From assembly GCA_037143735.1 (NCBI GenBank), contig JBAWYD010000001.1, forward strand, positions 1-49,615: DNA of 49,615 bases, written 5' to 3'. Every line of letters begins with the position of its first letter. Within the stretch, counting starts at the first letter, position 1. A program made the translations under genes and the position numbers. The DNA is from Deltaproteobacteria bacterium. Lineage in GTDB: Bacteria > Desulfobacterota > Syntrophia > Syntrophales > UBA2185. Under the pieces are notes generated by a model that was not told the origin of the DNA, did no database searches, and saw nothing but the letters and a program-made list of their open reading frames with translations. This document shows, piece after piece, positions 10,845-49,615 of the stretch.

Positions 10845-11546
10845 ATGGTTATGCAGAAAAAAGTTCTGATCGTGGATGACGAAAAAGATATTGTCGATCT
10901 CATTGCATACAATCTTGAAAAGGAAGGATTCGCGACGCTCAGGGCCTATGATGGAGAGGCGGCCCTTGGTCTTGCAAAGGCTAAGAAACCTGACCTGATC
11001 ATCCTTGATTTGATGCTTCCCGGTGTCCGGGGGCTGGATGTGTGCCGGTTCATTCGGAAAAATCCGGACACGGAAACCCTGCCCATTATCATGCTGACGG
11101 CGCGATCCGATCAGACGGACAAGATTCTGGGCCTGGAAATAGGGGCGGATGATTACATCACCAAGCCGTTCAGTGTCAGAGAGTTGATTGCCAGAGTCCG
11201 TGCCGTCCTGCGAAGATGGGATGAGCGTTCAAAGACAGCTAAAACAGAGACATTTCATTTTAAAGGCCTCCACATGAATTACGAGACTTATGAGGTTACC
11301 GTGGACGGCAGAAGGATTGAAATGAGTCCGACGGAAATCAAACTGCTCCGTTTTCTGACGCAGCATCCCGGCAGGGTTTATACCCGGGATCAACTCCTGG
11401 ATTATGTCTGGGGAGACGAAGCCTTTGTGGAGCCCCGGACGGTGGATGTACACATCAGCCGCTTGAGAGCCGCAATTGAAACAGACAAGGAAAATCCGCA
11501 ATATATTCTTACCGTCAGAGGGATCGGTTATAAGTTCGCTGCATGA
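10845..11546 (+). CDS. phoB: OmpR/PhoB-family response regulator (PhoB-like)
   Basis: Receiver domain ('VLIVDDE', 'DLIILDLMLPG', 'KPF') plus a winged-helix output domain ('VDVHISRLR', 'RGIGYKF'). Sits at the head of the pit/pst/phoU/phoR cluster. Confidence 0.85.
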   Translation: MVMQKKVLIVDDEKDIVDLIAYNLEKEGFATLRAYDGEAALGLAKAKKPDLIILDLMLPGVRGLDVCRFIRKNPDTETLPIIMLTARSDQTDKILGLEIGADDYITKPFSVRELIARVRAVLRRWDERSKTAKTETFHFKGLHMNYETYEVTVDGRRIEMSPTEIKLLRFLTQHPGRVYTRDQLLDYVWGDEAFVEPRTVDVHISRLRAAIETDKENPQYILTVRGIGYKFAA

Positions 11547-11610
11547 ACCCCTTCAGGGGTCACATGAGTCTGTCACTTTTTCAGAAAGGTTTATTGATTT
11601 GCTTCGGACA

Positions 11611-11650
11611 AATTCACCGATTTTTCACGATCCTGTCATCAAACTGTAAC
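11611..11650 (+). promoter_or_regulatory. Tandem Pho boxes upstream of pit
   Basis: Four 7-mers occur at exact 11-bp periodicity: AATTCAC cgat TTTTCAC gatc CTGTCAT caaa CTGTAAC. The last pair matches the E. coli Pho box CTGTCAT-A(A/T)A(T/A)-CTGT(C/A)A(C/T). A weak -10 (TAGTGT) lies 10 nt downstream. Confidence 0.6.
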
Positions 11651-11740
11651 AATTAACTGGTAGTGTCTGCCGAAGATTGTTTGCCGGTGTAGCCAATCGC
11701 CTTCACTGGAACAATATTATCATTATGAGGGAAAACCTGT

Positions 11741-12739
11741 ATGGATAGTTACCCGCTGGCAACCGTTATCTTCGTCGTTTTCATAGCTCTCATCTTTGAC
11801 TTCATTAACGGTTTTCATGACTCTGCAAATTCAATTGCCACAATCGTTTCAACCCGTGTGCTGAGCCCCCGAAACGCCGTCATAATGGCGGCCTTTTTCA
11901 ACTTTGTGGCTGTCTTTTTTGTCGGCGTTCAGGTGGCAAAGACAGTCGGTACGGGAATTATTAATCCCGCCATTGTGGATAACAGGCTTATCTTATCCGC
12001 TCTGGGCGGGGCCATAACCTGGAACCTCATCACGTGGTGGCTGGGTCTGCCCAGCAGTTCTTCCCATGCCCTGATAGGCGGCCTTATCGGAGCTGGTCTC
12101 GTGAAAGGTGGAACGGAGGTGCTGGTCTGGAAGGGCATCATTAAAACAGCGAGTTTTATTGTTCTTTCCCCCATCATCGGCCTGAGTCTCGGATTGCTGT
12201 TAATGGTCGTGACGTTAAATTTCTCCCGGTACTCGACGGTGGCGGGAGCGGACAGAATATTTAGAAGGTTCCAGTTGTTTTCTGCCGCCATTTTCAGCCT
12301 CAGTCACGGTATGAACGATGCGCAGAAAACAATGGGGATCATTGCCGTCGTTCTGTTCAGCAGCGGCTATCTGGGATCAACATTTTATATTCCTTACTGG
12401 GTTGAGTTTGCCTGTTATCTTGTTATCGCGTTGGGGACGATGATGGGAGGATGGCGGATTGTCAAGACCATGGGAACGAAGATCACAAAACTTGAGCCCA
12501 TGGGAGGGTTTTGTGCAGAGACTGCGGCTGCCATCTCCATTATTGGCGCTACGGCGGCAGGCATTCCCGTAAGCACGACCCATACGATCACAGGCGCCAT
12601 TATGGGAGTGGGCGCCACGAAACGGCTGACGGCCGTCCGATGGGGGGTTGCAGGAAATATCGTCTGGGCCTGGGTATTGACCATACCCATAGCGGCATTT
12701 ATTTCAGCTGCCATATATTTTACTTTGATCGCTTTTTAA
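11741..12739 (+). CDS. pitA: PiT-family inorganic phosphate transporter
   Basis: 332 aa polytopic membrane protein. The 'GFHDSANSIAT' and 'SHGMNDAQK' signatures are typical of PiT/PHO4. Confidence 0.9.
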   Translation: MDSYPLATVIFVVFIALIFDFINGFHDSANSIATIVSTRVLSPRNAVIMAAFFNFVAVFFVGVQVAKTVGTGIINPAIVDNRLILSALGGAITWNLITWWLGLPSSSSHALIGGLIGAGLVKGGTEVLVWKGIIKTASFIVLSPIIGLSLGLLLMVVTLNFSRYSTVAGADRIFRRFQLFSAAIFSLSHGMNDAQKTMGIIAVVLFSSGYLGSTFYIPYWVEFACYLVIALGTMMGGWRIVKTMGTKITKLEPMGGFCAETAAAISIIGATAAGIPVSTTHTITGAIMGVGATKRLTAVRWGVAGNIVWAWVLTIPIAAFISAAIYFTLIAF

Positions 12740-21627: not shown

Positions 21628-23337
21628 CTAACCATCCTCCCCATCCTCTTCTGAAACATTCAGAGATAGCAGATTGACGGCTTCGACGGAGGGAAGTTCC
21701 TGCACGTTCTTGAGCTTTCTTCCAATAGCTCTCGACCGGACCTTGGCCTTTTCGATGGTGTCCGTTGCCTGATGCAGTTTGTTCTGAACGATGTCCAGAA
21801 CATCGCCGTACTTCGTCCATTCGGTCTTGACCGCCGCAAGAAGGTTCCATACCTCGCTGGAACGCTCCTGAATGGCAAGCGTGCGGAACCCCATCTGAAG
21901 GCTGTTCAAAATGGACCAAAGGGTAGTCGGACCGGCGATCACCACCCGGCACTCCCTTTGGATGACCTCGGTCAACCCGGGTCTTCGGATGACTTCGGCA
22001 AAAAGTCCCTCGATGGGCAGGAACAGAATGCCGAAATCCGTGGTCTTTGGGGGGCTCAGGTATTTCTCGCAGATGTCCCTGGCGCAGCTCTTGACGCGGT
22101 TCTCAAGCTGTTTTCCTGCTACTTCCACACCCTCTACATCGACCTTCTCTTGAGCCTCAATCAGACGTTGATAGTCTTCGACAGGGAACTTGGCATCAAT
22201 CGGGAGCCAGACGGTCTCATCCTTCTCCAAACCTTGTCCCGGCAACTTGATCGCAAACTCGACACGCTCGCCGCCATCCCTCGTGGCCACGTTCATGGCG
22301 AACTGATCGGGATTGAGAACCTGCTCCAACAGCGCCCCAAGTTGCACTTCACCCCAAGTCCCACGCGTCTTGACGTTCGTAAGTACCTTTTTGAGGTCGC
22401 CAACGCCCGTGGCAAGTGTCTGCATCTCCCCAAGCCCCTTGTGCACCTGCTCCAGGCGTTCGCTGACTTGTTTAAAGGATTCTCCCAGACGTTTTTCCAG
22501 CGTCCCTTGAAGTTTTTCGTCCACGGTCTGTCGCATTTGATCAAGCTGTTTGGCGTTGTCGATCTGCATGCTTTGAAGTTTGCCTTCCACCGTAACTCTG
22601 ACCGCCTCAAGTTTTTTCTCATTTGAATCGGAAAGCTTTCCGATCGCCGCCGACATTGTTTCAAGTTGGGTTTTTTGGACATTGGCCATCTCCCCCATTG
22701 TTTTGGTGGTGGCTTCTGTGATCCCTTTGAGAGCCGCTATGACCTCTTCCCTTAATTGTTTAGCACCTGTGGCCGATTCAGTTCGTATACCATCGAGTTT
22801 CTCACCACTGGTCTTTGTCAAGGAGGCGATCTGTCCTGAGAATGTTTCAAGCTGAGCTTTTTCGGCAACGGCCAAATCTTTCATCGTCTTGGCCATCGTC
22901 TCAGAGATGCTTTTGAGGGTCGTCACGACTTCTTCACGAAGCTGCTTAGCCCCTAAGGCTGATTCTGAACGCACGCCGTCCAACCGCTCACCGCTGGCAT
23001 GGGCAAAGGCACCGAGCTGACCCGAGAAAGCATCGAGTTGCCCTTTTTGTATATTGGCAACATCCATCATTCGCTGAACCACGGAATCACCGAAGGTTTT
23101 GAAGGCTTCGGTGAGTTCATGCCGCTGTTCCCTTGCTGCCTTGCTGAGTTCATCCCGGCTGTGAGCCACTTCCTCCCGGACCGCTCGTTCGGTACGTTCC
23201 TGCGCTTTTTCGAAGGCATCGAGGCGGGGAGCAAGCACAGCGGCGTCGCTTTGCGATGCCTTCTTTAAGAGAATCAACAGGAGCCCGATAACAACAACCA
23301 GCATGATCAATGCTGCAATCAACAGGGTATCAGACAT
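21628..23337 (-). CDS. rmuC: DNA recombination protein RmuC with an expanded N-terminal coiled coil
   Basis: N-terminal TM helix and a long coiled coil. The C-terminal nuclease-like region ('VEFAIKLPG', 'LPIDAKFPVEDY', 'FGILFLPIEGLFAE') is typical of RmuC. I prefer the ATG at 23337 (GGGAGGAG RBS 8 nt upstream) over 23391. Confidence 0.9.
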   Translation of the reverse strand: MSDTLLIAALIMLVVVIGLLLILLKKASQSDAAVLAPRLDAFEKAQERTERAVREEVAHSRDELSKAAREQRHELTEAFKTFGDSVVQRMMDVANIQKGQLDAFSGQLGAFAHASGERLDGVRSESALGAKQLREEVVTTLKSISETMAKTMKDLAVAEKAQLETFSGQIASLTKTSGEKLDGIRTESATGAKQLREEVIAALKGITEATTKTMGEMANVQKTQLETMSAAIGKLSDSNEKKLEAVRVTVEGKLQSMQIDNAKQLDQMRQTVDEKLQGTLEKRLGESFKQVSERLEQVHKGLGEMQTLATGVGDLKKVLTNVKTRGTWGEVQLGALLEQVLNPDQFAMNVATRDGGERVEFAIKLPGQGLEKDETVWLPIDAKFPVEDYQRLIEAQEKVDVEGVEVAGKQLENRVKSCARDICEKYLSPPKTTDFGILFLPIEGLFAEVIRRPGLTEVIQRECRVVIAGPTTLWSILNSLQMGFRTLAIQERSSEVWNLLAAVKTEWTKYGDVLDIVQNKLHQATDTIEKAKVRSRAIGRKLKNVQELPSVEAVNLLSLNVSEEDGEDG

Positions 23338-23487
23338 GATCCAACTCCTCCCAAAATTTGTTTGTTGAATAGACCGGTTACTTTCGGTCATTCATCTATT
23401 TACCTGTATTTTCCCTATATCTTTATGTTGATGTCATAGCTACTAACCCCCATGCCGGGGTCGGGCACATCCGAGGGGTAGGATTGA

Positions 23488-23643
23488 TTAGTAGTCTATG
23501 TGCAGTTTGGATAGAATATCCGGTGAGTCTCGCTTTACAATGTGGTAAGCCACCTTCTCATTACAATATGCCACAAAATCACCCGCCTCCAACGCTTCTT
23601 TCAAGACGGTGTAGTAGTCAACCGCTGGAGTAATAATCAACAC
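23488..23643 (-). pseudogene. Truncated tandem paralog of the 23692..23979 ORF (51 codons from a GTG; could be a gene remnant or a small functional ORF)
   Basis: Hand translation gives VLIITPAVDYYTVLKEALEAGDFVAYCNEKVAYHIVKRDSPDILSKLHIDY. This aligns with the C-terminal half of the upstream ORF (FAVAYYVILDDALSNGDFVLYNSGPPPTYRVVRKGQPDIMS). It is in the same frame and follows two in-frame stops. Confidence 0.4.
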
Positions 23644-23691
23644 TCTATGAGAAGCTCAACCGGTATGCTGGAGCTTCCGAGTAGAAGTGAT

Positions 23692-23979
23692 TTACTGTTT
23701 CATGGACATGATGTCTGGCTGTCCTTTTCTCACAACGCGATATGTCGGTGGTGGTCCGCTATTGTATAGAACGAAGTCACCATTTGATAAAGCATCATCC
23801 AGTATCACATAATAAGCAACCGCAAACTGATGTTCCCTTAATTTGGATTGTATCTCTTCAATGGTAACAAATTTGTCCAAACTTGGATCAATTTTAGAAA
23901 TAATCATTGAATGTGGTTTTGGTTTAGTTTCTTCTAATGCCGCCAAGAACTCTCCTTTTGTAAAAACCTTGCCTGTCAA
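23692..23979 (-). CDS. Small hypothetical protein (95 aa, TTG start), last gene of the candidate defence operon
   Basis: Open frame co-directional with the operon and 96 nt downstream of the glycosylase gene. No recognisable motif. A truncated paralog lies immediately downstream. Confidence 0.55.
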   Translation of the reverse strand: MTGKVFTKGEFLAALEETKPKPHSMIISKIDPSLDKFVTIEEIQSKLREHQFAVAYYVILDDALSNGDFVLYNSGPPPTYRVVRKGQPDIMSMKQ

Positions 23980-24075: not shown

Positions 24076-24855
24076 TTACAATTTCTTATAAAAACAATGC
24101 TTTACAACAAGACATTTACTGCATGTTGGCACATTTTCAAGACAGATACCCTGGGGAAGTCCAATGTCCATATCATCTTCGATATGCCCAAATTTCACCA
24201 TGATAATGTCTACATATCTATGGCTATAGCCGGTTTCTTCAGCAAATTTGTTGCAGACTTGCCGTGCGTCATCAAGGCAAGTTTCATTTCTGACCAATTG
24301 CAGGCGGCTCAATACCCTCATAATAACCCTGTCAGGTTTTATCGTTTTTGCCCCGATATCCGTGAGAAAATGGTGCACTGTCGCCTCGCCCATATAAGAG
24401 AAGGTATGTCTAAGGATCGTTGCCGCCTTTTCGAGATCTTCCGGGCTTCGGTTAAAATTCAAAGACCCCAGATAGTTTTTAAAGGAACCATGCCGCTTCG
24501 TTATGGCCTCTACGATTTTTGCGTTTGAAATGGCTGACCTTATTTTAGCGGGATGCCTGATCATCTTTGAATCTGTCAGGATCTTATTGAAATCGGACTC
24601 ATCATATCGGGCAACTGTTTTGTAGTCTGGGAAATATCCTTTGATTGTATCGATCTTGCTCGTTACGGTCTTGCTTTTCATGCCTGCGTAAAAAGGGATG
24701 TAGGCAAGAACCTGATAAAGGTAATTGTCATCGAAGGCTTCAAAGTCAAAGTGCTTGAACCGCTCGAATCTGCTGAGCACTGTCTCACGCGAATAATTTG
24801 AATTTTTAATGATGGTTTCCAGAATCAAATCGAATATATTTCTATGCTTTCCCAT
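24076..24855 (-). CDS. HhH-superfamily DNA glycosylase (Tag/EndoIII-like, MpgII-type) with a C-terminal [4Fe-4S] cluster loop
   Basis: 'AGMKSKTV...FPDYKTVARYDESDFNKILTDSKMIRHPAKIRSAISNAKIV...HGSFKNYL' aligns with E. coli Tag ('AGLSWITV...FDPVKVAAM...AGIIRHRGKIQAIIGNARAY...FADFVW'). An HhH-plus-Asp segment 'MGEATVHHFLTDIGAKTIKPDRVIMRV' is present. The C-terminal 'CLENVPTCSKCLVVKHC' is exactly C-X6-C-X2-C-X5-C, as in EndoIII and MutY. I prefer the ATG at 24855 (AGAGGA RBS) over 24924. Confidence 0.8.
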   Translation of the reverse strand: MGKHRNIFDLILETIIKNSNYSRETVLSRFERFKHFDFEAFDDNYLYQVLAYIPFYAGMKSKTVTSKIDTIKGYFPDYKTVARYDESDFNKILTDSKMIRHPAKIRSAISNAKIVEAITKRHGSFKNYLGSLNFNRSPEDLEKAATILRHTFSYMGEATVHHFLTDIGAKTIKPDRVIMRVLSRLQLVRNETCLDDARQVCNKFAEETGYSHRYVDIIMVKFGHIEDDMDIGLPQGICLENVPTCSKCLVVKHCFYKKL

Positions 24856-24901
24856 TTTAATCCTCTTATCCCAGTAATATTGTATAATTGACCATGATGT
24901 T

Positions 24902-25843
24902 TCAGGGGGACGTTGAAAAACCATCCCGTGTGACTTTGTTCGATCCTTGAATCAATATCTCGTCAAGCGGATCATAAGCAGCCGTTTCCTTTTGATAATC
25001 TTTCCAGCGTTTTTCATAAACAGTCTGCGCCAAAAGTGATACATCCGTCGTTCTGCCTTCATCATCCGACTCATCAAGACCGTAGTCGTAACGAATTCCA
25101 CCGCGTTCAGTCAGAATATACCGGGCATGGGGTTTGTCACCGTCTGGTTTTTCCTTCCAACGGAAAACACGCAATTGCGAACCTTCCGGTAGGATTGGAG
25201 ACAAATAATTCTGGCAACGCTCCTGCCAGATATCCAGAGGAGGAGGGGGCTTTTTTATCGATTCTTTATACTCGGCATGAAGTTCACAACGGCGGGGCTT
25301 GTTGTTTTCGAAGGTAAAATTGATGATATGGGAAAATGTATCCCGGAATCTCGGTAATTCCGGATTGAAATGAGGATCAATCATCATGATTTCTTTACTG
25401 AAATTTAAAAGCGATCTTGCGCAAACCGCAAGATCGTATGCCTTTCGCGGCACTATTTTTTCCCTCGGGACATTCCATAGCTCGATTGTTTCATCAATGT
25501 CTTCCGCAATCAGGACTTTTTCGTGATTTCTCGGATTTTCACATGAGATAATGGCGTGAAAAAATTTAATGTCATGTTGATTTTCGGCGTTTTCGAGCCA
25601 GCCTCGTTCTGAAGAGTAATTCCTGTTGGAATTTATCAGCTTATGCTCCATATTGCGCAGCTTTTCAACAACGGCCGTCCTTTTCACTCCCTCTATAATA
25701 CAGTGGCTTATCGCCTCTTTCTGCCATCTTCGGGGGAAACGGGATATCAGTCTGCCATGGTGAACACCGCACTGGTCAATCACATATTTGAACGTTGGCC
25801 AGTTGTTGAGACAAGCGGGGTCCAGGGCAAATTCATGAATCAT
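24902..25843 (-). CDS. Hypothetical protein (313 aa), translationally coupled to the upstream ATPase
   Basis: The ATG at 25843 overlaps the ATPase stop codon as ATGA (the ORF-track start is 25888). I found no Walker, HNH, TIR, Toprim or PD-(D/E)XK motif. Candidate conserved strings are 'IMMIDPHFNP' and 'PHARYILTERGGIRYDYGLD'. Confidence 0.7.
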   Translation of the reverse strand: MIHEFALDPACLNNWPTFKYVIDQCGVHHGRLISRFPRRWQKEAISHCIIEGVKRTAVVEKLRNMEHKLINSNRNYSSERGWLENAENQHDIKFFHAIISCENPRNHEKVLIAEDIDETIELWNVPREKIVPRKAYDLAVCARSLLNFSKEIMMIDPHFNPELPRFRDTFSHIINFTFENNKPRRCELHAEYKESIKKPPPPLDIWQERCQNYLSPILPEGSQLRVFRWKEKPDGDKPHARYILTERGGIRYDYGLDESDDEGRTTDVSLLAQTVYEKRWKDYQKETAAYDPLDEILIQGSNKVTRDGFSTSP

Positions 25844-27675
25844 CAGAAAAGCTCCTTTTCGCGTTCGGTGAAAAAGCCTTCCGGCCATTTATCGATAAAA
25901 TCCCCATCCTCGGAAATGCGCAATTCCATGAGTTCCGTGCCGTGTTCCGTCGGCTTGGCATAAATGACAGCCACATCCTCTGGCTTGAGGGGTGGCTGGC
26001 CTTCCTCCAGTTCGCCGTTGGTCGTCTCCCGGATACGCCGGAGCAGGCGCAGCAGGAGATGCTCACTATGGGTTTCAATTATATATTGACATGGTTTCTT
26101 TTTCGCTCCTTCGATAAAGAAATCGGCCAATTCTGTCTGTAGACGCGGGTGAATGTGGATCTCTGGTTGCTCGATAAACTTGTAGCTCCATTCAGAACGA
26201 TCATAGTATTGCCCATTCCACTCATAGCGATCGGAAATCAGGCCGTCCACGAGTATAGGCAGGATCTGGCTTATGCCGAAGCCGACATCCTTGATGCAGG
26301 ATTCAATGCCTGTTTCCGTGCTAATGAGAACTATTTCGTAATAATCCCTGACCACAGGACGAACATTGATCTCGTAGCCTGCTTCCAGGCGCTTGAGCCA
26401 TGCGTTGACCTTCTCCAGAATGTCCGGCCTGGCAATTAGAATGTCCATCGTGTTTTCCCCTTTGCTGCCCACAGTTGCCGGCGCTGTTCCCGAATAGGCA
26501 TACATACGCTCTGGCATGGCCCGAAGAGGTCCGATATAGGTCGTCAAGGCCAGCATGTCCTGAAAACACCTAGAGGCGAGAAGAACCGCCGTGTAAGGAA
26601 GATAAAAACAGTGTGCTTCATCAGTCTCGCGCGCATCGGAAGCTCGCTGTTCTGTAAGCGCGCCAGCCTGTGATACCGCATGGATGAACCTGTACTCCTC
26701 GCCCGTAACCAATTTCTGGGGAAAACAATTACCCAGCGCGATAAGGCGATCAAAATATCCGTAATTATTGTGAAATACTGCTACCATCTCCATTAAATCA
26801 CTGTCAGACAAGTCCTGTATACTCTTTTGCAAAGATTCCAAAAAGGATAGGTAGCGCTCGCATTTTTTTATTTCCTCCTTGGCCTGGATATTCTCCAATG
26901 TATTTTCTTCCGCCTTTGCTTCCTTTGCCCTTGCTTTGGCAAGACGTTCTCTCAAAGGAGTCATCTCCTCTGTCAGGCCCATATCAGATGGTTCCTCTCC
27001 TTCTTCTTGTAGTCTTCGATTACTATCTGCGTTATAATCCCAGCGTGCCTTGACGCATGGATGATCCAGATTTAACTCTGTACGACACAACATATTTGAT
27101 GTTTTTAGTTTTTCCAGCTCCTCTTTCGCTTGTTTATAATTGGAATTTTTGATGGCTTCGGGGTCATTTTTTTCAACAAATTCTTGGATGATACTTTCCC
27201 ACATAGAGATTGCACTCTGCATCTCCGGGATGTCGTCCAGCAGGCGGTATGCTGTTACCACTTCTCCTCCGACCCGGTCGGAGATATCAATGGCCTTGAC
27301 ACGGATGTTGCGTTGCCTGTCCAAGGCAAAGCGCATACCAAGGGCAATCGTTTGTGTAGGGTTCCATACCCACGCCAAGTCATCTTCAGCCAGCGAAGAT
27401 GCATCCATAGCGATACTGAACCCAAACTCTTTCTGTTCGTTGTGGCCGTTGATAAATTCTCGGTAGGTGCCGGCATCGAGTAACTGTCCCCTGGGAATCA
27501 ACGCGCCTTGCTTGCGCCCCCCTTCATCAAGTGTCTGTTTGAACAACAGCAGCGCCTGCATAAGAGAGCTTTTCCCGGAACTATTTGGTCCATAAAGAAG
27601 AGTGATTGGCTTTAATGGGATGCGCTGCATCTTGCCGAAGGATTTGAAATTTTCGATGCCGATTTCTGTAAACAT
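25843..27675 (-). CDS. ABC/SMC-like ATPase of the AAA15/AAA21 type with a central coiled-coil insertion and a DUF3696-like C-terminal tail
   Basis: Walker A 'LYGPNSSGKSS', signature-like 'GFGISQILPIL', Walker B 'FIEQPEIHIHP', H-loop 'IIETHSEHLL'. Residues about 170-300 are charged heptad-like sequence ('RERLAKARAKEAKAEENTLENIQAKEEIKK'). The tail reads 'DGDFIDKWPEGFFTEREKELF'. AGGAGA RBS lies 6 nt upstream. Confidence 0.85.
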   Translation of the reverse strand: MFTEIGIENFKSFGKMQRIPLKPITLLYGPNSSGKSSLMQALLLFKQTLDEGGRKQGALIPRGQLLDAGTYREFINGHNEQKEFGFSIAMDASSLAEDDLAWVWNPTQTIALGMRFALDRQRNIRVKAIDISDRVGGEVVTAYRLLDDIPEMQSAISMWESIIQEFVEKNDPEAIKNSNYKQAKEELEKLKTSNMLCRTELNLDHPCVKARWDYNADSNRRLQEEGEEPSDMGLTEEMTPLRERLAKARAKEAKAEENTLENIQAKEEIKKCERYLSFLESLQKSIQDLSDSDLMEMVAVFHNNYGYFDRLIALGNCFPQKLVTGEEYRFIHAVSQAGALTEQRASDARETDEAHCFYLPYTAVLLASRCFQDMLALTTYIGPLRAMPERMYAYSGTAPATVGSKGENTMDILIARPDILEKVNAWLKRLEAGYEINVRPVVRDYYEIVLISTETGIESCIKDVGFGISQILPILVDGLISDRYEWNGQYYDRSEWSYKFIEQPEIHIHPRLQTELADFFIEGAKKKPCQYIIETHSEHLLLRLLRRIRETTNGELEEGQPPLKPEDVAVIYAKPTEHGTELMELRISEDGDFIDKWPEGFFTEREKELF

Positions 27676-27690
27676 GATGGTTCTCCTGAT

Positions 27691-27852
27691 TTATTGGCCT
27701 TTTTTCACCGCAGTAGCTTCATCCTCTTCAACTTTCTTTGATAAAGCCATTCTTACATAGGTTGACATGTCACAGTTAAACCTCTCAGCCTGTTTCTGAA
27801 TTCTTTCCTTAAATGCGTGGTTCGCTCTGATTATCATTACTGAAGTCTTCAT
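27691..27852 (-). CDS. Ribbon-helix-helix (CopG/Arc-like) DNA-binding protein, first gene of the operon
   Basis: 'MKTSVMIIRANHAFKERIQKQAERFNCDMSTYVRMALSKK' fits the beta-alpha-alpha RHH pattern. An AGGA RBS lies 7 nt upstream of the ATG at 27852. Alternative longer starts are 27945 (ATG) and 27981 (TTG). Confidence 0.65.
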   Translation of the reverse strand: MKTSVMIIRANHAFKERIQKQAERFNCDMSTYVRMALSKKVEEDEATAVKKGQ

Positions 27853-27988
27853 GCTTCTTTCCTTTGAGGGCAATTTGACATGATGGTTGTGCAAGCTGTG
27901 AGACAAAGCATTAAAATGAGCAACATTCCTGTAATGATCTTCCATGACATTTCCTGCCTCCCTTGATATGTATTTACTCAAGGGCTAG

Positions 27989-28004
27989 AGCAGGTTCTAT
28001 GCCA
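27989..28004 (-). promoter_or_regulatory. Candidate sigma-54 (-24/-12) promoter
   Basis: The minus strand reads TGGCAT-AGAAC-CTGCT against the consensus TGGCAC-N5-TTGCW. The GG and GC dinucleotides have the correct 10-nt separation. It sits in the intergenic region upstream of the RHH/ATPase operon and 1.4 kb from a sigma-54 activator gene. Confidence 0.55.
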
Positions 28005-28080: not shown

Positions 28081-28094
28081 GTAATATATATTAC
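28081..28094. promoter_or_regulatory. Perfect 14-bp palindrome, candidate enhancer (UAS)/operator
   Basis: GTAATATATATTAC is its own reverse complement. It lies about 77 bp upstream of the -24 element, a typical distance for bEBP binding sites. Confidence 0.3.
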
Positions 28095-28149
28095 TATAAC
28101 AGTAAACATCGTTACCTTAAAACGCCTTCAGATATGTTTGTTCCAGCCG

Positions 28150-29397
28150 TCAGGCAAGCCAGTTCCACGGAATGGCGATTACATGAGAGTGGAGCCAACG
28201 GATTTCTGAACCGGTGTATAGAAGGACGCCCCTGACAGTTTGGGGATATGCTTCGAGAAAGAGAAGAAGATTCTTGTAGTCGTTATATCCGGGATTGTCG
28301 GTCATTTTGACTTCGAACGCCAGTAGTTTTCGTCCGTGTTCAATAACGAAATCGACCTCCTTGTTGCCCGTTGTTTGCCAGAAGTATATTTTCCCCTTGG
28401 GGGTCATTAATTCCGTCAAAATCCTCAGGTGCAAGAATATCATGGTTTCAAAGAAATTTCCAAGTTCTCTTCCCTTGCGCAGGGCATCCTCATCGAAGTA
28501 GCCTGACAGATAGACGCTCAATGCGGGATCAACAAAATACAGTTTGGGAGTTTTTTTTATCTGACTGGTGCGATTTACGTAAAAAGCCGGCACCCTGGAG
28601 ACGATGTTCGATATCTCCATAAGCCTAAGGTAACGAAATACAGTGGACTGGCTAACGCCCGTGTCTCTCGCCACGTCGGTCTGTTTCATCATGCAGCCGG
28701 TGCGCAGGGCGAATGATTCCACCACCTTTCTGAAATCAATCAGAGAATCGACCTGAGATAACTGACGCAAGTCTCTTTCCAGATATGTCCTGACGTATCC
28801 CTCCCACCAGAGAGATATCTGCTTGGGATTGTCCAGAGTCAGAAGCGGCGGCATAAAGCCCCGCAAAATCAGCGGCAGCGGATCTGTGGCATCTTTTTTC
28901 TGTTCTTTGATTTCAAGGTCATCGTTCCATAAGTTCAGAAAATTCTGAAATGCATCTTCCTTTCCTGTCATTTCTCCGTGCGACATCGGCAGGAGTTCAA
29001 AATAAACCGCTCTTCCCGCAAGTGTTTCACTTACCTTTTCCATCAACAGGAGATTTGCAGAGCCTGATATGAGGAATCTCAACCTTCTTTGGCTTGAATC
29101 AACGGCAAGTTTTATGGCGGAAAAGACTTCGGGCAATCTCTGTGCTTCGTCGATGATGATTTTTTCCGCCCCTTTCCAGAGGATTTGAGGATCGCTTTTC
29201 GCCTGCTGAAGAATTCTATGATCGTCAAAGCTGACATATCTGAAGTCGGGAAACTCGTTTTGAAGAAGGGTGCTTTTGCCTACTTGTCTTGCGCCCGTTA
29301 AAACCACAACAGGAAATATTTCAATAGCTGCGGCTACTTCCTTAGCCATCCATCTTTTTTTGTAAATCAATTCAGGTGCTGAATAGTTTTCATTCAT
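28150..29397 (-). CDS. AAA+ ATPase with DUF4143-type C-terminal region (COG1373-like) carrying a PD-(D/E)XK-like motif
   Basis: Walker A 'LTGARQVGKST', Walker B 'IIIDEAQ', a wHTH-like 'VSQSTVFRYLRLME', and C-terminal 'EVDFVIEHGRKLLAFEVK'. Confidence 0.85.
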   Translation of the reverse strand: MNENYSAPELIYKKRWMAKEVAAAIEIFPVVVLTGARQVGKSTLLQNEFPDFRYVSFDDHRILQQAKSDPQILWKGAEKIIIDEAQRLPEVFSAIKLAVDSSQRRLRFLISGSANLLLMEKVSETLAGRAVYFELLPMSHGEMTGKEDAFQNFLNLWNDDLEIKEQKKDATDPLPLILRGFMPPLLTLDNPKQISLWWEGYVRTYLERDLRQLSQVDSLIDFRKVVESFALRTGCMMKQTDVARDTGVSQSTVFRYLRLMEISNIVSRVPAFYVNRTSQIKKTPKLYFVDPALSVYLSGYFDEDALRKGRELGNFFETMIFLHLRILTELMTPKGKIYFWQTTGNKEVDFVIEHGRKLLAFEVKMTDNPGYNDYKNLLLFLEAYPQTVRGVLLYTGSEIRWLHSHVIAIPWNWLA

Positions 29398-29452: not shown

Positions 29453-31006
29453 TCACATCCCAAACTTTTCCTTCGCCCGCTTGCGGAAGGTATGGGGTTT
29501 GATTTTGAGGAGTCGGGCAGCGGCTTCCCGGTTGCCGTCTTTCATTTTGATGGCTTCTTCATAGCAGGACTTTTCAAGATCGTGCAGATATGCGTCGATG
29601 TCCAGACCTTCGGGCGGGACGGAGGTTTGCCGGAAAGGCGTAGAGGGCGTATCTTTAGAAGACAGGAATGAAGGTGATGTTTCCGGAGGCAGGTCTGCGT
29701 CTCTGATAACATTGCCTTTTGATATAACAAATGCCCGCTCCATAGCGTTCTCGAGTTCCCGAATGTTGCCCGGCCAGGCGTAATCAAGGATTTGTTTCAT
29801 TGCTTCCCGGCTGAGCTGCTTCTTCTGACGGTAACGATGGTTATGGTTGTTCAAAAAATGCTCCACGAGGAAAGGAATATCTTCTTTTCTGTCGCGTAAG
29901 GGCGGCATCTGAATATCGATGACCTTCAGCCGGTAATACAAGTCTTCCCGGAATTTGCCTGCGGTGACGAACCCGGCCAGATCCCGGTTGGTGGCGGCGA
30001 TAACCCGCACATCCGTCTTTATGGGGTTCAAGCCGCCGACGCGCGTGATCTCATAATCCTGCAGAACCCGGAGGATCTTGGCCTGGGCGGGCAGGGGCAT
30101 ATCGCCTATTTCGTCGAGGAAAATGGTTCCTTTGTTAGCCAGTTCGAATTTGCCCTTCTTCTGCTGAATCGCACCGGTAAACGCGCCCTTTTCATGGCCG
30201 AAAAGTTCGCTTTCCACGAGGGTTTCCGGAATGGCCGCGCAGTTAACCACAATGAAAGGCTCAGTTTTTCTCGCACTGTTGAAATGAACCGCACGGGCGA
30301 TGAGTTCCTTGCCCGTACCGGTTTCCCCTTGAATTATGACGGCAGAGTCATACCGGGAAGCAGCCCTGACCACATCAATTACCTTCTCCAGGGCAGGGCT
30401 TTTACCGATCATCCGGAGATCGGAAAATTCGCGAACAATGTCGTCCCTTTCCGCCTCTAACTGTTCTTTTCTCAATAAGGTTACGACATAATCAAGATTC
30501 TCCAGTGCAGGGGACGAAATCAGGGGAAAGTTATCGAGAGGTAAATGGATTTCGGAGACAGCCTTTTGACGGGGCCTCAAAAACCTGGGCGGTGTGATTT
30601 TGAGCAGAGTCGCCGGAACCAGTCCTGACCGGGAAAGGAGAAACCAGATTGTCTGCATCTGCGGCGTCCCGGATGCCGTGGCAATCCAGTAAGATGGCTG
30701 CTCATTTTTGTGCTTGCCCATGATATCCTGACAGAGCCTGTTCATATGGAGAAACAGGTTTTCATAGTCCGTAGGATCAGAAATGTCGATGTTTAGTATG
30801 CTGGTTTCGACGTCATTCACGCGTCCGGCGATCTCATCCTGAAGGTTGTGGGCATTGGTCAGGGTATTCGGGGTTGTAAAAATATATATCCACTGGAAAT
30901 GCCGCTCCCCGAGAAGCGTCAGCACGGGGCCTTCGGAATTGATGCCCTGGATGATTTCGAGGTTGAATGGATCCCGGTTGCCGGCAAAGGTGAGCAGTAT
31001 ATCCAT
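29453..31006 (-). CDS. Sigma-54-dependent transcriptional activator with an RtcR-like CARF N-terminal domain
   Basis: AAA+ core 'GETGTGKE', '[15 protein letters not shown]' (GAFTGA) and 'IFLDEIGDM'. C-terminal Fis-type HTH '[19 protein letters not shown]'. The N-terminal ~170 aa, including '[19 protein letters not shown]', align with 'YLIHITTGTHVAQICWFLL' of E. coli RtcR. Confidence 0.85.
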
Positions 31007-31020
31007 AGCGATTCCTCAGA

Positions 31021-31428
31021 TTACGGTTTAACGCCTCTGATCTCAAGAAATTCCCGGGGTGTGACAATGTTTATTCCCTGATACCGGCGGACATCAATCA
31101 GCGCCTTGTCACCGGAGACGACATATTGGGCCTTCAGGGCCAGGGCGCAGGCGATGAATTTGTCGTCGTCCGGGTCAGCGACGACATGAACTTCCGGCGT
31201 TCTGGTCGTAAAGACAATGTGGAAGCCGGTGGCGAAAAGCTTCAGCAATTCCTCCAGCTCCTGCGTATTGTCGAATCCCAGGCGACGGAGAACTTCGATG
31301 TATTCATCAAAGATTTCCTGCGAAAGGCAGAGTGTCAGGCGGCCATCTTTCCATAAATCGATGATTGCTCTCGGGTTGCCTCCGAAGAAGGAGGAAATGA
31401 AAACATTGGTATCCAGGACGACCCTCAT
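31021..31428 (-). CDS. PIN-domain toxin (putative RNase)
   Basis: 'MRVVLDTNVFIS' (first acidic residue), 'EEL', 'DPDDDKFIACA' and 'VVSGDKAL' are typical of the PIN_3/TIGR00305-type family. ATGA overlap with the upstream antitoxin gene. Confidence 0.85.
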   Translation of the reverse strand: MRVVLDTNVFISSFFGGNPRAIIDLWKDGRLTLCLSQEIFDEYIEVLRRLGFDNTQELEELLKLFATGFHIVFTTRTPEVHVVADPDDDKFIACALALKAQYVVSGDKALIDVRRYQGINIVTPREFLEIRGVKP

Positions 31429-31673
31429 GTCTTGCCCTGCCTGACTTCCTGAATGGTCTCGGAAATCCGGTCGGCTGTGACGCCCTGCGAGACCAGCCGC
31501 ATTCCGATTTTTTCCCAGAGACCGTCCACATATGCGGCTATATCGCGGCTGGATATATATTCCTCCAGCAGCTCCCGGACGACGTCGCTGGTCGTTTTCC
31601 CCTCCGCCCGCGCAAAGCGGTTTACTTTATCTTTAAGCACAGGATCGATCCGGATGATCATCTGGGTAGACAT
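31425..31673 (-). CDS. RHH-type antitoxin partner of the PIN toxin
   Basis: 'MSTQMIIRIDPVLKDKVNRFARAEGKTTSDVVRELLEEYI' fits the RHH pattern. AAGGAGGAG RBS lies 6 nt upstream of the ATG at 31673 (ORF-track start 31724). Confidence 0.7.
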   Translation of the reverse strand: MSTQMIIRIDPVLKDKVNRFARAEGKTTSDVVRELLEEYISSRDIAAYVDGLWEKIGMRLVSQGVTADRISETIQEVRQGKT

Positions 31674-31783
31674 GGCGCTCCTCCTTTTGTGAAACCGTAT
31701 TAAACGTTTATACGATATATACAAAAGAAAACAGTGTCAAGAAAATTTTCAGCCGATAAAATCTGATGGGTTCGTAAAATGTC

Positions 31784-46177: not shown

Positions 46178-49100
46178 TTATTTCACCGGCCAGCCGCCGT
46201 GGGTGTCGATGGTCTCGTCGATGGCCGCCATGTGGCGGATGGTTTCGGCCAAGGCGGCGACGACGCGCTGGTAATGGGTGATGTCGTCATAGGTAAGCGG
46301 GCGGCCCTTCCGGTCCTTGAGCCATTTCCGGCAGACCTGGTAACCGCCGACATGAAACGCCCACACCTCCGGGGGCACTCCCTCGAAGTACTGGGTCTTG
46401 TTGATCCAGACACGCCCTGCTCCATGCCGACCCTTGTCTTCCTTTCCATCTGGGGAGGAACTCCCGTTATACCCATCCCTCCCCTGGCGGGAGGGATCGA
46501 GGGAGGGGGAAGCTTCCGCATATTGAACCGTTTCCACAAGATTGTCCCCCGCAATGGGGTAGGCCGTGATCAGCGGCATTGTTTTTTCCATCAGGTGCAG
46601 CGCCACAAGCTCTTCCCCGATGCCGCAAAGATTGCGGAACAAATCGGCGTTTGACGTCAGGGGCAGGCGAGGAAAGTCGATCTTGAGGAACTCGGCGTAA
46701 CGGCTGCGGTAGGCCGGGGAATGGAAGACGGCATACATGTAAGCGAAAATATCCTCCGGGCCGAAGGTCTGTTGCCGGTCTCCCTTGCCGTCGGGGATGA
46801 AGACCATGCCGAGACGGGCGGCAATATCCTCGATGAACGCCGGGGCAAGGTTGGGGCGGCGGGAAGAAGAATTGTCTGTTTTAAACAATGAAGTTTCAGA
46901 CTCGCTCTCAAGATAAAGAGGGAAATGGAAACTGTTATTTGATGTTTTGGGAGAGAGAAGAATCTTCTCCGACGGAAACTTTGTCAAATAGATATGGGCA
47001 AATGATTCGCCCTTTGTCATACGACTTGTTAAAAGAGCAATATTATCGCCAATCATCTGGTTCATGACGGCTGGCCGGGGCCTACTGTGAAATCCCCTCG
47101 AGTGGCCGGTATAGAAGGTGAAACGATCATCAAAAGGCCGGTAGGCCAATCTGATCAAAGAACTGTCTGAAAGTCCGGTCTGTTTCAAGTCAGATTGGGC
47201 CAGTGCTATTTGCCAATCTTGTGAGTCTTCGCCAAGGTCCAATTCCTGACGGGCCACTTCAGGTGGCAATGAAATAAAACGACCAAGCTTTTCTTTCGCT
47301 TCCTCGGAGGTCATGTGCACGGCCAAGTGGTCGCGTGACGTCACTATTCCTACTGAGTAGATCGACATCATATCCGTAACCTTCCATCCCCGTTCGTATT
47401 CCGGCAGCAAAGCGATATCCTGCGGCACAAAAAGATAAAACGGCGGTTGGGGCGTCAGAGTTTCCCAGGTTGTGGTCTGAATGTCGTTTTCCCAGAGCCA
47501 GGCATATTTGCTGCCGGAGAGCTTCCGTCCATCCGGGGTGTTTTCATGGACCTCGCGGATTCCCCAGAGGTGGGCATGGTGGATTCGGGAAGGGCGGTCT
47601 TGGGCATTATGCTTTTTCACAAAGATCCCGATGGCCACACCCTGCTGGATGTCGAAGACATTTTCATCTTTCGAGCCGTCGGGACAGCGCTCCTTCTTCT
47701 TGCTGTTGCCGTGGAGATCGAGGAGATAGATGTCGTCGAAGGTGTTCATGAGGCTTTGGCGCATTCCCCGGAAAGTCGGGTTGTCAAGATAGCCGTGATT
47801 CGTGATGAAGGCAAGGATACCGTAACCCGTTTTCTCGATCCGCCACTGGGCAAAGCGGATGAATTTGACATAATCGTCCTGTAGCCCTTTCGGATTGCGC
47901 TCACCCAGAGGCTGACCGTCCACTGAATAATAGTCCCGGATCAGTGCGCTGATCCATTCTCCTGTATTAGCGGATTCATATGAATACGGCGGATTACCCA
48001 GGATGACCATTACCGGCGCATCCTGTTTGACCGCACCGGCGGCGTTGACCTCTTCGACAAGCCACCGGGTGAAGAGAGGCATATCGCTGATTTTATAGGC
48101 CTCCTCCAGTGTGTTGGTGAGGTAGATACGGAGGCGCTCGTCCGAGCCGAAGTCATAGCCGTATTGGGCAAGCTGGAGACCAAGCTTCATGTGGGCCACG
48201 GCGTAAGGGGCCATGAGAAGTTCAAAGCCGAAAATCCTCGGCAGAAGGTGCCGGGATACATAACCCTGTTCGCCGCTCCATGCGCCGACCTGACCGGCTT
48301 TGCAGATGTGGTCATGAATCTGATCAATGACGCCGTGGAGGAATGTTCCCGTTCCTGCGGCCGGATCGAGAATCAGGACGCGATGAATTTCCGAGCCCCC
48401 CTCACCCTGCCCCTCTCCCGCCGGGGGAGAGGAAACTTTTGGTTTTGTCAGCTTGATCTTGCCCGTATCGGCCAGGCCGTCCGGCAGGCAGAAATCGGTT
48501 TTCAGCAGATGATCGACGCTGCGGACGATATAGGAAACGACCGGTTCGGGGGTGTAATAGACGCCCCTGGCCTCTCGCATCTTAGGATCATAGGCGGTCA
48601 GGAAGGTCTCGTAGAAATGGACGACGGGGTCTTCCTGGCGGGTGCGCTTCCCGAAATCCCGGAGGATGCCTTCCATGTCCGTCCGGTCCAGAAGGGTCGC
48701 AAGGTCATCGACAATCCAGACGATGCGTCCGTCCATGTCCGGCCCGGCGATGTAATTGAAGAGTCTCCGCAGAAAGGGATTCGTTTTGGGCAGATCGAAG
48801 GCGGCATGCTCCCGGATAAAATGATTTCCCTTTTCCAGGCGGGTGTTGCAGCGGGCGGCGAAGAGGCCGTAACAGATGGTCTGGGCGTACATGTCGGCGA
48901 ACTGTTCCGCCGTCAGATCATGCAGAAGGACCTTCCGGAAACCATCCATTTGCATATGGAGAGCGCCTTCCTCTCCTTCATCGTTCAGGGCATTCAGGAT
49001 CGTCGTTCGGGTCTGACGGGCCAGTGAGGCCATGCGGACGGCCAGATCCTTTGGCGTATTAATCAGAGCTACGCGTTCGTGAAAAAAGGCTGAGAGGAGT

Positions 49101-49516
49101 TCCGCAACCTGGGCGGCACCTGCCTTGTCGATCTTCAGTTTGCCGGAAAATTCCAGCTTCGCAAGGCGGGCCGTCAGGCGGTGGGCGCCCGCTACGTACC
49201 AGCGGAATTCGAGGTAGTCCGTAAGGAGGAGATTACCGAGGCTTTCCCTGTAGCGCTTTAACTGTTCCTCTTTTTCCGCGGCGTCCAGGGATTTGCCCAC
49301 ATCCTTGGCTTCGATATATCCGACGGGGATGTCGTGCCGGGAGACGATGAAATCGGGTGCGCCACATTTTTCCCGTTTCGGCTCGTTGGTAGCGGTAATA
49401 TTTTCGGCAAGGGATTCTATGAGTTCCTTCAGGGCAGGGCGGTGGGTGTGCTCCGTGGCGTTGCCTGCCTTGAGGTTCCGTTCAACGGCGGTCAGGTAGC
49501 TTTTCATAGGTTCCAT
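46178..49516 (-). CDS. Type IIG/IIL (MmeI-like) fused restriction endonuclease / N6-adenine methyltransferase / specificity protein
   Basis: N-terminal PD-(D/E)XK 'APDFIVSRHDIPVGYIEAKD', gamma-class MTase motif I 'LDPAAGTGTF' followed by motif IV 'GNPPYS'. The C-terminal 'YFEGVPPEVWAFHVGGYQVCRKWLKDRKGR' is typical of the Type ISP/IIL C-terminal specificity domain. No helicase motifs are present. I prefer the ATG at 49516 (or 49507) over the ORF-track TTG at 49600. Confidence 0.85.
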   Translation of the reverse strand: MEPMKSYLTAVERNLKAGNATEHTHRPALKELIESLAENITATNEPKREKCGAPDFIVSRHDIPVGYIEAKDVGKSLDAAEKEEQLKRYRESLGNLLLTDYLEFRWYVAGAHRLTARLAKLEFSGKLKIDKAGAAQVAELLSAFFHERVALINTPKDLAVRMASLARQTRTTILNALNDEGEEGALHMQMDGFRKVLLHDLTAEQFADMYAQTICYGLFAARCNTRLEKGNHFIREHAAFDLPKTNPFLRRLFNYIAGPDMDGRIVWIVDDLATLLDRTDMEGILRDFGKRTRQEDPVVHFYETFLTAYDPKMREARGVYYTPEPVVSYIVRSVDHLLKTDFCLPDGLADTGKIKLTKPKVSSPPAGEGQGEGGSEIHRVLILDPAAGTGTFLHGVIDQIHDHICKAGQVGAWSGEQGYVSRHLLPRIFGFELLMAPYAVAHMKLGLQLAQYGYDFGSDERLRIYLTNTLEEAYKISDMPLFTRWLVEEVNAAGAVKQDAPVMVILGNPPYSYESANTGEWISALIRDYYSVDGQPLGERNPKGLQDDYVKFIRFAQWRIEKTGYGILAFITNHGYLDNPTFRGMRQSLMNTFDDIYLLDLHGNSKKKERCPDGSKDENVFDIQQGVAIGIFVKKHNAQDRPSRIHHAHLWGIREVHENTPDGRKLSGSKYAWLWENDIQTTTWETLTPQPPFYLFVPQDIALLPEYERGWKVTDMMSIYSVGIVTSRDHLAVHMTSEEAKEKLGRFISLPPEVARQELDLGEDSQDWQIALAQSDLKQTGLSDSSLIRLAYRPFDDRFTFYTGHSRGFHSRPRPAVMNQMIGDNIALLTSRMTKGESFAHIYLTKFPSEKILLSPKTSNNSFHFPLYLESESETSLFKTDNSSSRRPNLAPAFIEDIAARLGMVFIPDGKGDRQQTFGPEDIFAYMYAVFHSPAYRSRYAEFLKIDFPRLPLTSNADLFRNLCGIGEELVALHLMEKTMPLITAYPIAGDNLVETVQYAEASPSLDPSRQGRDGYNGSSSPDGKEDKGRHGAGRVWINKTQYFEGVPPEVWAFHVGGYQVCRKWLKDRKGRPLTYDDITHYQRVVAALAETIRHMAAIDETIDTHGGWPVK
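46475..46497. repeat. GC-rich 9-bp-stem hairpin embedded in frame in the Type IIG gene
   Basis: ATCCCTCCC-ctggc-GGGAGGGAT. It encodes 'DPSRQGRD' within a G/S/P-rich segment. Confidence 0.6.
48412..48432. repeat. GC-rich 8-bp-stem hairpin embedded in frame in the Type IIG gene
   Basis: CCTCTCCC-gccgg-GGGAGAGG. It encodes part of 'SSPPAGEGQGEGGSE', immediately N-terminal to MTase motif I. Confidence 0.6.
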
Positions 49517-49519
49517 GAT

Positions 49520-49547
49520 ATTATAGTGGGAAAATGTTTCTATGCAA
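49520..49547 (-). promoter_or_regulatory. Sigma-70-like promoter abutting the Type IIG start codon
   Basis: The minus strand reads TTGCAT (49547..49542), a 16-nt spacer, TATAAT (49525..49520), then ATC-ATG. No Shine-Dalgarno is present. Confidence 0.35.
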
Positions 49548-49615
49548 GGTTGTTCGCTGCTGGTGTCAAGAGCAAATAGACTTGTCCGGTTTTGTAGCAA
49601 ATGAGTTGTCCGCTT

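Follow-up and report, generated by a model that had tools for sequence, protein, structure and literature searches.

A CARF-type sigma-54 activator and its predicted target, a Menshen-like ATPase-nuclease operon with candidate enhancer and promoter, in a Syntrophales genome

The anti-phage systems known so far are mostly regarded as constitutively expressed, and to our knowledge the gating of defence transcription by CARF-type signal sensors, predicted since 2014, has never been demonstrated. Here we describe a candidate for such a switch in a 49.6-kb stretch of DNA from a bacterium of the Syntrophales (positions 1–49,615 of contig JBAWYD010000001.1, assembly GCA_037143735.1), called the window below. 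The regulator, a 517-amino-acid (aa) protein encoded at 29453–31006 on the minus strand, joins a CARF domain to a sigma-54 interaction AAA+ core and a Fis-type helix-turn-helix (HTH). We give a probability of roughly two in three to the proposal, taken as a whole, that it acts in cis as a ligand-gated enhancer-binding protein driving an adjacent Menshen-like ATPase-nuclease operon.

Regulators of this kind have been described before. RtcR-like proteins with CARF, NtrC-type AAA+ and HTH domains were reported as "not linked to Rtc system" and "often associated with restriction-modification systems", and were predicted to be sigma-54 activators of downstream genes, triggered by infection-derived ligands (Makarova et al. 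2014, PMC4012209). RtcR homologues were later found to head defence "superoperons", with 2',3'-cyclic-phosphate RNA as the proposed signal (Bell et al. 2024, PMC11090510). As the concept was predicted in both studies and the family is already present in PADLOC, it is not new, and the locus is a new example of a family already predicted to control defence genes, not a new kind of system. With these rtc-unlinked regulators (PMC4012209; PADLOC RtcR_PspF2; the proteins heading CoCoNuT systems, PMC11090510) the window protein shares its architecture, a full-length profile match, the lack of linkage to rtc genes, a position 5' of defence genes (in relatives of the locus, type I restriction-modification (R-M)) and the presence of RNase toxins alongside. 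The cargo differs, being here an NsnB/NsnC-like ATPase-PLD pair instead of CoCoNuT/McrBC. Moreover, the enhancer sequence, the promoter and their spacing are defined here and were not found in the earlier descriptions of the family that were consulted; together with the identity of the cargo they are what is new in this locus, and they make the long-standing prediction directly testable. RtcR of Escherichia coli and Salmonella likewise combines CARF, NtrC-type AAA+ and HTH domains, sigma-54 dependence and presumed autoinhibition by CARF, but is encoded divergently to rtcBA, whereas the regulator described here is co-directional with and upstream of its proposed target and has no adjacent rtcBA.

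Pfam searches of the regulator returned the sigma-54 activator domain (Sigma54_activat, 240 bits, residues 199–366), AAA_lid_14 (91 bits) and the RtcR N-terminal domain PF06956 (residues 47–147; 38.1 bits, gathering score 23.1), the last being the profile check that the first-pass annotation of the window had suggested. The CARF sensor occupies approximately residues 1–165 (30512–31006, minus strand), and the AAA+ core and lid approximately residues 199–445 (29672–30412, minus strand). The core has intact GAFTGA, Walker A (GETGTGKE) and Walker B (FLDEIGD) motifs, which with the lid are the features of an enhancer-binding protein, and it matched NifA, ZraR, NtrC1 and PspF in the Protein Data Bank (PDB). 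The C-terminal Fis-type HTH (29471–29587, minus strand) narrowly missed the HTH_8 cutoff (20.1 bits against 22), which this C-terminus reaches in relatives, with 29.7 bits in L029 (compared loci carry L numbers). Pfam domains, motifs and an AlphaFold2 (AF2) model searched with Foldseek all agree with the earlier reading of the gene as an RtcR-like fusion of CARF, GAFTGA AAA+ core and Fis-type HTH, and this is the domain architecture of RtcR. The likeness that had been seen to the E. coli motif IHITTGTHVAQICWFLL reappeared in a BLASTP alignment with RtcR of E. coli MG1655 (30% identity over 396 columns), which begins only at residue 54 of the regulator.

Family profiles were more specific. PADLOC assigned the protein to RtcR_PspF2--CARF_AAA_HTH (PDLC01995; E 2.1e-136, 453.9 bits, residues 2–512 on profile positions 2–476 of 481), a name whose sense we take from the PADLOC label, and the sister profiles RtcR and RtcR_PspF1 scored far lower (222.5 bits each). 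The NCBIfam RtcR equivalog NF038308 gave 345.7 bits against a cutoff of 650, over residues 43–506 only, and for this reason we do not regard the regulator as an RtcR orthologue. The observation that no rtcA, rtcB or CRISPR-cas genes lie nearby holds for the entire window: tblastn with rtcA and rtcB gave noise only (E > 0.1), the other open reading frames (ORFs) of the window contained no cas or rtc domains, and neither a CRISPR-like array nor any Rfam family other than one tRNA was found in it. As regards a type III CRISPR-Cas ancillary role, there is no cas10, csm, cmr or array in the window, and none was noted in the related loci examined.

The strict sigma-54 pattern TGGCA[CT]-N5-YYGC[AT], anchored on the GG and GC dinucleotides, had a single match on either strand of the window, TGGCAT-AGAAC-CTGCT (-24 GG / -12 GC) at 28004–27989 on the minus strand. 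The sigma-54 match noticed at first reading ahead of the operon is real and the only strict one. Upstream of it lie two copies of the palindrome GTAA-N6-TTAC, a distal one (GTAACGATGTTTAC, 28102–28115) 111 nucleotides (nt) upstream of the -24 element and a proximal one (GTAATATATATTAC, 28081–28094) 90 nt upstream of it. These are the only two copies in the window, where 0.19 were expected, and at least two copies occurred in none of 100 shuffles. A -24/-12 promoter with an upstream site within approximately 80–150 nt is the arrangement on which an enhancer-binding protein would act, and we predict, by analogy, that the palindromes are enhancers (upstream activating sequences) bound by the Fis-type HTH. 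The syntenic locus L005 has the identical promoter sequence, and in the other loci comparable elements stand ahead of the ATPase gene.

Approximately 80 related loci were compared, 69 of them from species-representative genomes retrieved through a CARF-only alignment and the rest from protein-identity look-ups. Searching homologues with the CARF domain alone gave mostly fragments, which nonetheless located contigs and exposed short forms of the regulator. tblastn searches with the window proteins placed the ATPase downstream of the regulator in 13 loci, and its partner in 7; among the close-family loci with at least 1.5 kb of downstream sequence, the ATPase was present in 9 of 12. Regulator loci bearing the ATPase also occur in Spirochaetaceae, Chloroflexi, Rhodothermales and Gammaproteobacteria. 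The element TGGCA[CT]-N5-YYGCW stands between regulator and cargo in every close locus with enough flanking sequence, at 55–112 nt ahead of the ATPase start in the short-gap loci L006, L012 and L021, and GTAA-N6-TTAC, often twofold, lies upstream of the promoter in these close relatives. In 1.18 Mb of related loci, a palindrome was present 66–122 nt upstream of 20 of the 43 promoter matches, compared to about 1% by chance, with the spacings falling into classes of 88–92, 109–113 and 121–122 nt. Loci that had been reached independently, by way of the partner protein, obeyed the same rule (L076/77, L081 and L082). In four loci without a toxin-antitoxin (TA) module (L006, L012, L021 and L082) the palindrome lies 14–21 nt past the regulator stop codon. 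Moreover, regulators with the window-type HTH sequence have the palindrome, whereas groups with another HTH do not. Neighbourhoods sampled through the partner contained the regulator in 4 of 7 cases, and the other 3 end too early. No rtcA or rtcB was found in any close-family locus; rtcB occurs only beside distant Myxococcota relatives, in divergent orientation (L039, L043, L046 and L049). What these computational comparisons show directly is the domain make-up, the cis elements and the conserved association of these elements with regulator and cargo; together they constitute strong comparative evidence, at the level of sequence, for action of the regulator in cis on the promoter beside it.

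The ATPase-partner pair often stands alone. It is also appended to type I R-M genes (HsdR-HsdM-HsdS) in L052, L067, L074, L078, L083 and the P0124 contig, which belong to several phyla, and a sigma-54 activator is found in front of these appended pairs wherever the sequence extends far enough. In L083 (3629–9906) two tandem pairs follow HsdRMS, the first ATPase being split by a frameshift. Members of the regulator family are also found at the head of unrelated cargo, including TPR proteins and proteins of an unannotated cluster, C3. The C3 protein (approximately 170–200 aa) is a second recurrent cargo, and the promoter and leader that precede it, TGGCATGGTTGCTGCTCTATCC, are highly conserved. 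Some islands contain at least two enhancer-promoter pairs (L020 at 11642/11753 and 17398/17486; L015 at 4373/4486 and 6214/6327), so one regulator probably drives several cargo units. In spirochaete relatives whose HTH reads AARLLGxNPPAFRKALRERF, the palindrome is upstream of the regulator gene itself (L027, 9757–9844; L040, 129–153; L047, 507), a placement that points to autoregulation or to an operon headed by the regulator; L027 has a sigma-54 promoter upstream of the regulator gene as well.

Short forms of 262–281 aa, with the same CARF domain and Fis-type HTH and without AAA+, are encoded in L029 (10001–10837), L030 (1749–2594) and L004 (10001–10789) (proteins P0013, P0014 and P0016). L029 and L030 are from Chloroflexi genomes. 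In L029 the short form is directly ahead of the same ATPase, and in L004 and L030 the palindrome is at the 3' end of the short-form gene, 66–78 nt before the next gene (type I R-M-like and NERD-UvrD), without a sigma-54 promoter. In these forms the sensor and the DNA site seem to be retained and the output module exchanged.

The operon runs on the minus strand from about 27950 to 24076. Its first clear gene encodes a 53-aa ribbon-helix-helix (RHH)-like protein (27691–27852) with sub-threshold NikA-like and DUF6290 matches, 92% identical in L005 and absent from the other loci. A lipobox-like leader ORF of 33 aa read from the sequence ahead of it (27849–27950) is 76% identical in L005 only and is doubtful as a real gene. 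Next comes a 610-aa ABC ATPase (25843–27675; AAA_15/AAA_21) with a C-terminal DUF3696 tail at residues 563–609. In PADLOC it matched NsnB (192 bits, E 4.9e-57, profile positions 1–339 of 345) as well as PDC-M55A and HEC-03B, and more weakly AriA, GajA, PtuA and AbiLi; its N-terminus weakly matches RecF, SMC and Rad50. The partner gene (313 aa, 24902–25843) overlaps the ATPase stop codon with its start as TGATG, an arrangement of translational coupling. The partner had no match in Pfam, PADLOC or NCBIfam, and its approximately 190 homologues are all annotated as hypothetical. For the partner an AF2 model was the one informative source: confidently folded, with a predicted local distance difference test score (pLDDT) of 90.7 and a predicted template modelling score (pTM) of 0.86, it had as its best PDB matches in Foldseek the MIT_C domain of MITD1 (2ymb), PLD, the PLD3/4 nucleases and the nuclease domain of SauUSI, which places a PLD/MIT_C-like fold in its C-terminal half. 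Residues E202, H204, H254, R256, Y257, G263, G270 and D272 are invariant in the family.

The last gene (282 aa, 24076–24924) encodes a homologue of Tag/HhH-GPD-like DNA glycosylases, with 60.8 bits for Adenine_glyco against a cutoff of 25 and a PADLOC OGG match, but failing the Tag cutoff (TIGR00624, 31.2 bits against 232.5). It was found only in the window and in L005 and was for this reason rejected as the core effector. The rmuC gene further downstream (21628–23391) was rejected as cargo because it is unlinked to the regulator in all other loci. A terminator scan returned chance-level counts and did not define the operon end. The first-pass annotation had proposed that the CARF activator switches on an adjacent "ATPase/glycosylase" operon. 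The regulatory half of that proposal gains from the joint occurrence of regulator, enhancer, promoter and ATPase operon in different phyla; the unit it named has to be revised, since the conserved cargo is the ATPase and its PLD-like partner, with the glycosylase-like gene a lineage-specific third member.

The closest described counterpart of this pair is in Menshen (NsnABC). There the ABC ATPase NsnB has a DUF3696 tail to which the NsnC N-domain is predicted to dock, and NsnC carries a polymorphic effector; one class of these effectors, PB-PLD1, is MIT_C/PLD-like and has an active site of D/E plus HDR (PMC12065111). The window ATPase has both features of NsnB, the ABC ATPase and the DUF3696 tail, and carries an insertion of approximately 265 aa relative to the NsnB profile. 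The PLD/MIT_C-like C-terminal fold of the partner and its E...HxR signature (E202 with H254-x-R256) fit the description of the PB-PLD1 class and its active site, but the partner has no PADLOC NsnC match. No gene of the operon encodes a DUF262 or ParB domain; as the ParB-DUF262 protein (NsnA) is missing, the module is NsnB/NsnC-like but not Menshen as defined. It also differs in having a dedicated CARF regulator and in being often appended to type I R-M. PARIS (AriAB), Septu (PtuAB), Gabija (GajA) and AbiL/RloAB share the two-gene logic of ATPase and nuclease, in line with the weak profile matches, and the rlo genes are likewise embedded in type I R-M operons; these systems have Toprim or HNH effectors, in contrast to the PLD-like partner and DUF3696 tail here. 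What the locus presents is an uncharacterised NsnB/NsnC-like ATPase-PLD module, without NsnA, tied to a dedicated sensor.

We propose that the Fis-type HTH would bind the tandem palindromes at 28081–28115 and that, once a signal occupied the CARF domain, the AAA+ ring would remodel sigma-54 RNA polymerase at the promoter at 28004–27989. The minus-strand operon would then be transcribed, yielding the RHH protein, the ATPase, the PLD/MIT_C-like partner and the Tag-like glycosylase, and the pair of ATPase and partner would most likely work as an ATPase-controlled nuclease against invading nucleic acid. In this scheme autoinhibition by CARF is carried over from RtcR, and the nuclease activity of the partner and the role in defence are likewise drawn by analogy with described systems; that DNA would be the target of the operon, as the first-pass annotation supposed, is similarly an inferred point. 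The unit is a compact test case: one regulator, two copies of a 14-bp palindromic enhancer, a single sigma-54 promoter and a cargo of two to three genes. It could be rebuilt as a whole in E. coli, which has sigma-54.

To which signal the sensor might respond was approached through the CARF pocket. An AF2 model of residues 1–200 (pLDDT 83.4) matched only CARF domains in the PDB (42 of 42 Foldseek matches at E ≤ 1e-3), the top ones being Csm6 (6TUG, 8PCW), followed by Cam1, Cad1, ring nucleases and Csa3. In a sequence search of the PDB the CARF profile matched only Csm6 proteins that bind cyclic hexaadenylate (cA6) (6tug, E 8e-6; 8pcw, E 3e-5), and PADLOC reported a likeness of the regulator to CARF1--CARF_HEPN (E 1e-14). 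The pocket loops are G9-N-R-D-P13 and S112-G-T-P-Q-M117, and the segments most conserved among relatives of 24–80% identity are the loops G-x-R-D-P and G-T-P-x-M-Q-T. The residues required by EiCsm6 for cA6 sensing include Asn10, Thr114 and Gln116 (PMC7101355), and all three are kept at equivalent positions in the regulator, making three of four cA6-sensing residues. Thr11, which stabilises the ring-nuclease transition state in Csm6, is an invariant Arg in the regulator family. The corresponding loops of E. coli RtcR are different (GTVLDY and TGTHVA), the first 53 residues of the regulator, pocket loop included, do not align with that protein, and a sequence search of the PDB found no structure of an RtcR CARF domain.

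By sequence, then, the pocket appears nearer to that of cA6-binding Csm6 than to that of E. coli RtcR, and on this account the signal could be either RNA damage or a nucleotide. By analogy it could be an RNA 2',3'-cyclic-phosphate end, as for RtcR, or a cyclic oligoadenylate, as for Csm6 and Csa3; the retained Csm6 contacts are to the ribose-phosphate backbone and do not tell these two apart, and the Csm6-like pocket makes the question directly testable. Csm6 (EiCsm6, 6TUG; StCsm6', 8PCW/8PE3), the best match by profile and by structure, has a HEPN RNase output in place of the sigma-54 AAA+ module and is linked to type III CRISPR-Cas, of which the window has none. Csa3, a cA4-responsive CARF protein with a winged HTH, likewise places a CARF sensor over transcription of immune genes, and the short forms of L004, L029 and L030 are functionally analogous to it; unlike the regulator, it is CRISPR-associated and works without an AAA+ or sigma-54 step. 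An extended and rather unlikely proposal is that the domain is a cA6-like, Csm6-type receptor for cyclic oligoadenylates, feeding a signal from type III CRISPR-Cas or another cyclase into transcription of the Menshen-like ATPase-PLD module, and of type I R-M in relatives, and that the AAA+-less short forms do the same through sigma-70 promoters in phyla without sigma-54. If this were true, a cyclic oligoadenylate second messenger would for the first time be seen to gate a sigma-54 enhancer-binding protein.

Other readings of the locus were weighed against this scheme. The wiring could be as proposed with the CARF domain serving as a protein-interaction module, freed by the cargo proteins or by a neighbouring toxin and without a small-molecule or RNA ligand. 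There is precedent, as RtcAB bind the RtcR CARF domain directly and are needed for activation (Kotta-Loizou et al. 2022, PMC9650030), and the tight co-occurrence of the regulator with the ATPase-partner pair agrees with it. However, the most conserved segments are the pocket loops, and their coincidence with the Csm6 loops contacting cA6 argues for a conserved nucleotide-type ligand; moreover, the same regulator family heads cargo as unrelated as C3 and TPR proteins. We consider this reading distinctly unlikely. In another, the operon would be induced by stress to repair DNA instead of serving anti-phage defence, in analogy with the induction of RNA repair by RtcR. The Adenine_glyco domain, the resemblance of the ATPase N-terminus to RecF, SMC and Rad50 and the presence of RmuC just downstream speak for it, but neither the glycosylase-like gene nor RmuC is conserved with the module, the former is far under the Tag cutoff, the ATPase matches the defence models NsnB, PDC-M55A, HEC-03B, AriA and GajA, and the module is repeatedly found inside type I R-M operons and TA-rich variable islands; we consider this reading very unlikely.

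That the protein is a genuine RtcR acting on an rtcBA operon elsewhere in the genome, its proximity to defence genes being a coincidence, would agree with the common three-domain architecture, the Pfam RtcR domain, the identity to E. coli RtcR and the rtcB genes divergent from distant Myxococcota CARF relatives. It fits poorly with the low equivalog score (346 bits against 650), the PADLOC preference for RtcR_PspF2 (454 bits against 222), the lack of rtcA and rtcB in the close family, the unalignable N-terminus with its pocket loop and the conserved enhancer and sigma-54 promoter beside the regulator and ahead of the ATPase operon; we regard it as highly improbable. These cis elements might themselves be chance or unrelated sequences, such as TA operators, and the ATPase operon independent of the regulator, given that the palindrome arms are short and AT-rich and that TA modules are often adjacent. 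To this idea we give hardly any credence, as the strict motifs are unique in the window, are significantly coupled in their spacing in many lineages, persist in loci without a TA module and co-vary with the regulator HTH.

Several points nevertheless weigh against the preferred scheme of a cis-acting, ligand-gated activator of a Menshen-like operon. A loose scan for sigma-54 sites (TGGCACN5TTGCW, up to 2 mismatches) found 21 where 21.7 were expected and was uninformative, for which reason it was replaced by the strict pattern, and the -12 element of the match is CTGCT rather than TTGCW. In the window 329 nt, holding two tiny ORFs, separate the promoter from the ATPase start, and an unrelated gene of 1.25 kb stands between regulator and enhancer. 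No rpoN domain was found in the other ORFs of the window, and further targets in trans, elsewhere in the genome, are possible. The third operon gene differs among loci. Some close relatives are decayed, with truncated or frameshifted regulators in L001 (9995–10993, 330 aa) and in L002/L003 (10001–11172, 254 + 116 aa), the latter two having neither enhancer nor sigma-54 promoter left, which suggests that the switch is frequently lost. The analogy to Menshen is partial, because NsnA is absent and the likeness of the partner to NsnC, which combines an inactive-PIN (inPIN) N-domain with a C-terminal effector domain, lies in the C-terminal part. Finally, no experimental test of sigma-54 defence activation by the RtcR-like family was found in the literature searched.

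Immediately upstream of the regulator, at 31021–31724 on the minus strand, lies a pair of RHH antitoxin and PIN_3 toxin genes, an arrangement also present in L005 and L024. The regulator starts 14 nt past the PIN stop codon and has no promoter-like site of its own, and a sigma-70-like site is found ahead of the RHH antitoxin at 31740–31712; the regulator is therefore probably made constitutively with the TA pair and would gate the downstream operon. Another sigma-70-like site precedes the gene between regulator and enhancer, which encodes an AAA_14+DUF4143 ATPase (28150–29397, minus strand; PADLOC candidate PDC-S01, 343 bits). This gene is an insertion in a variable slot and was rejected as a component of the system because it is absent from the syntenic L005 and other close loci. 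Genes like it also occur near distant regulators in L031 and L053. In L005 the slot holds HigB and an HTH_3 protein (11350–11942), and RNase-type toxins recur there in other loci too (HigB + HTH_3, Unstab_antitox + ParE/RelE-like, HicA or PIN in L005, L001, L011, L017, L077 at 2016–2195 and L081 at 135–536), resembling the BrnT/RelE association noted by Bell et al. (PMC11090510). This recurrence suggests toxin-generated RNA ends as a possible trigger; alternatively, the toxin pairs may be merely island clutter.

Elsewhere in the window, a pair of small ORFs (95 and 51 aa), similar to each other and without family match, is present between the glycosylase-like gene and rmuC (23488–23979, minus strand). 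An N6_N4 DNA methylase gene (296 aa) overlapping a 376-aa ORF without family match at 6331–8327 on the plus strand is possibly a small type II R-M pair. A further defence gene, approximately 15 kb from the regulator at 46178–49600 on the minus strand, encodes a large Type ISP R-M enzyme (Type_ISP_C, 294 bits, with an N6_Mtase fragment).

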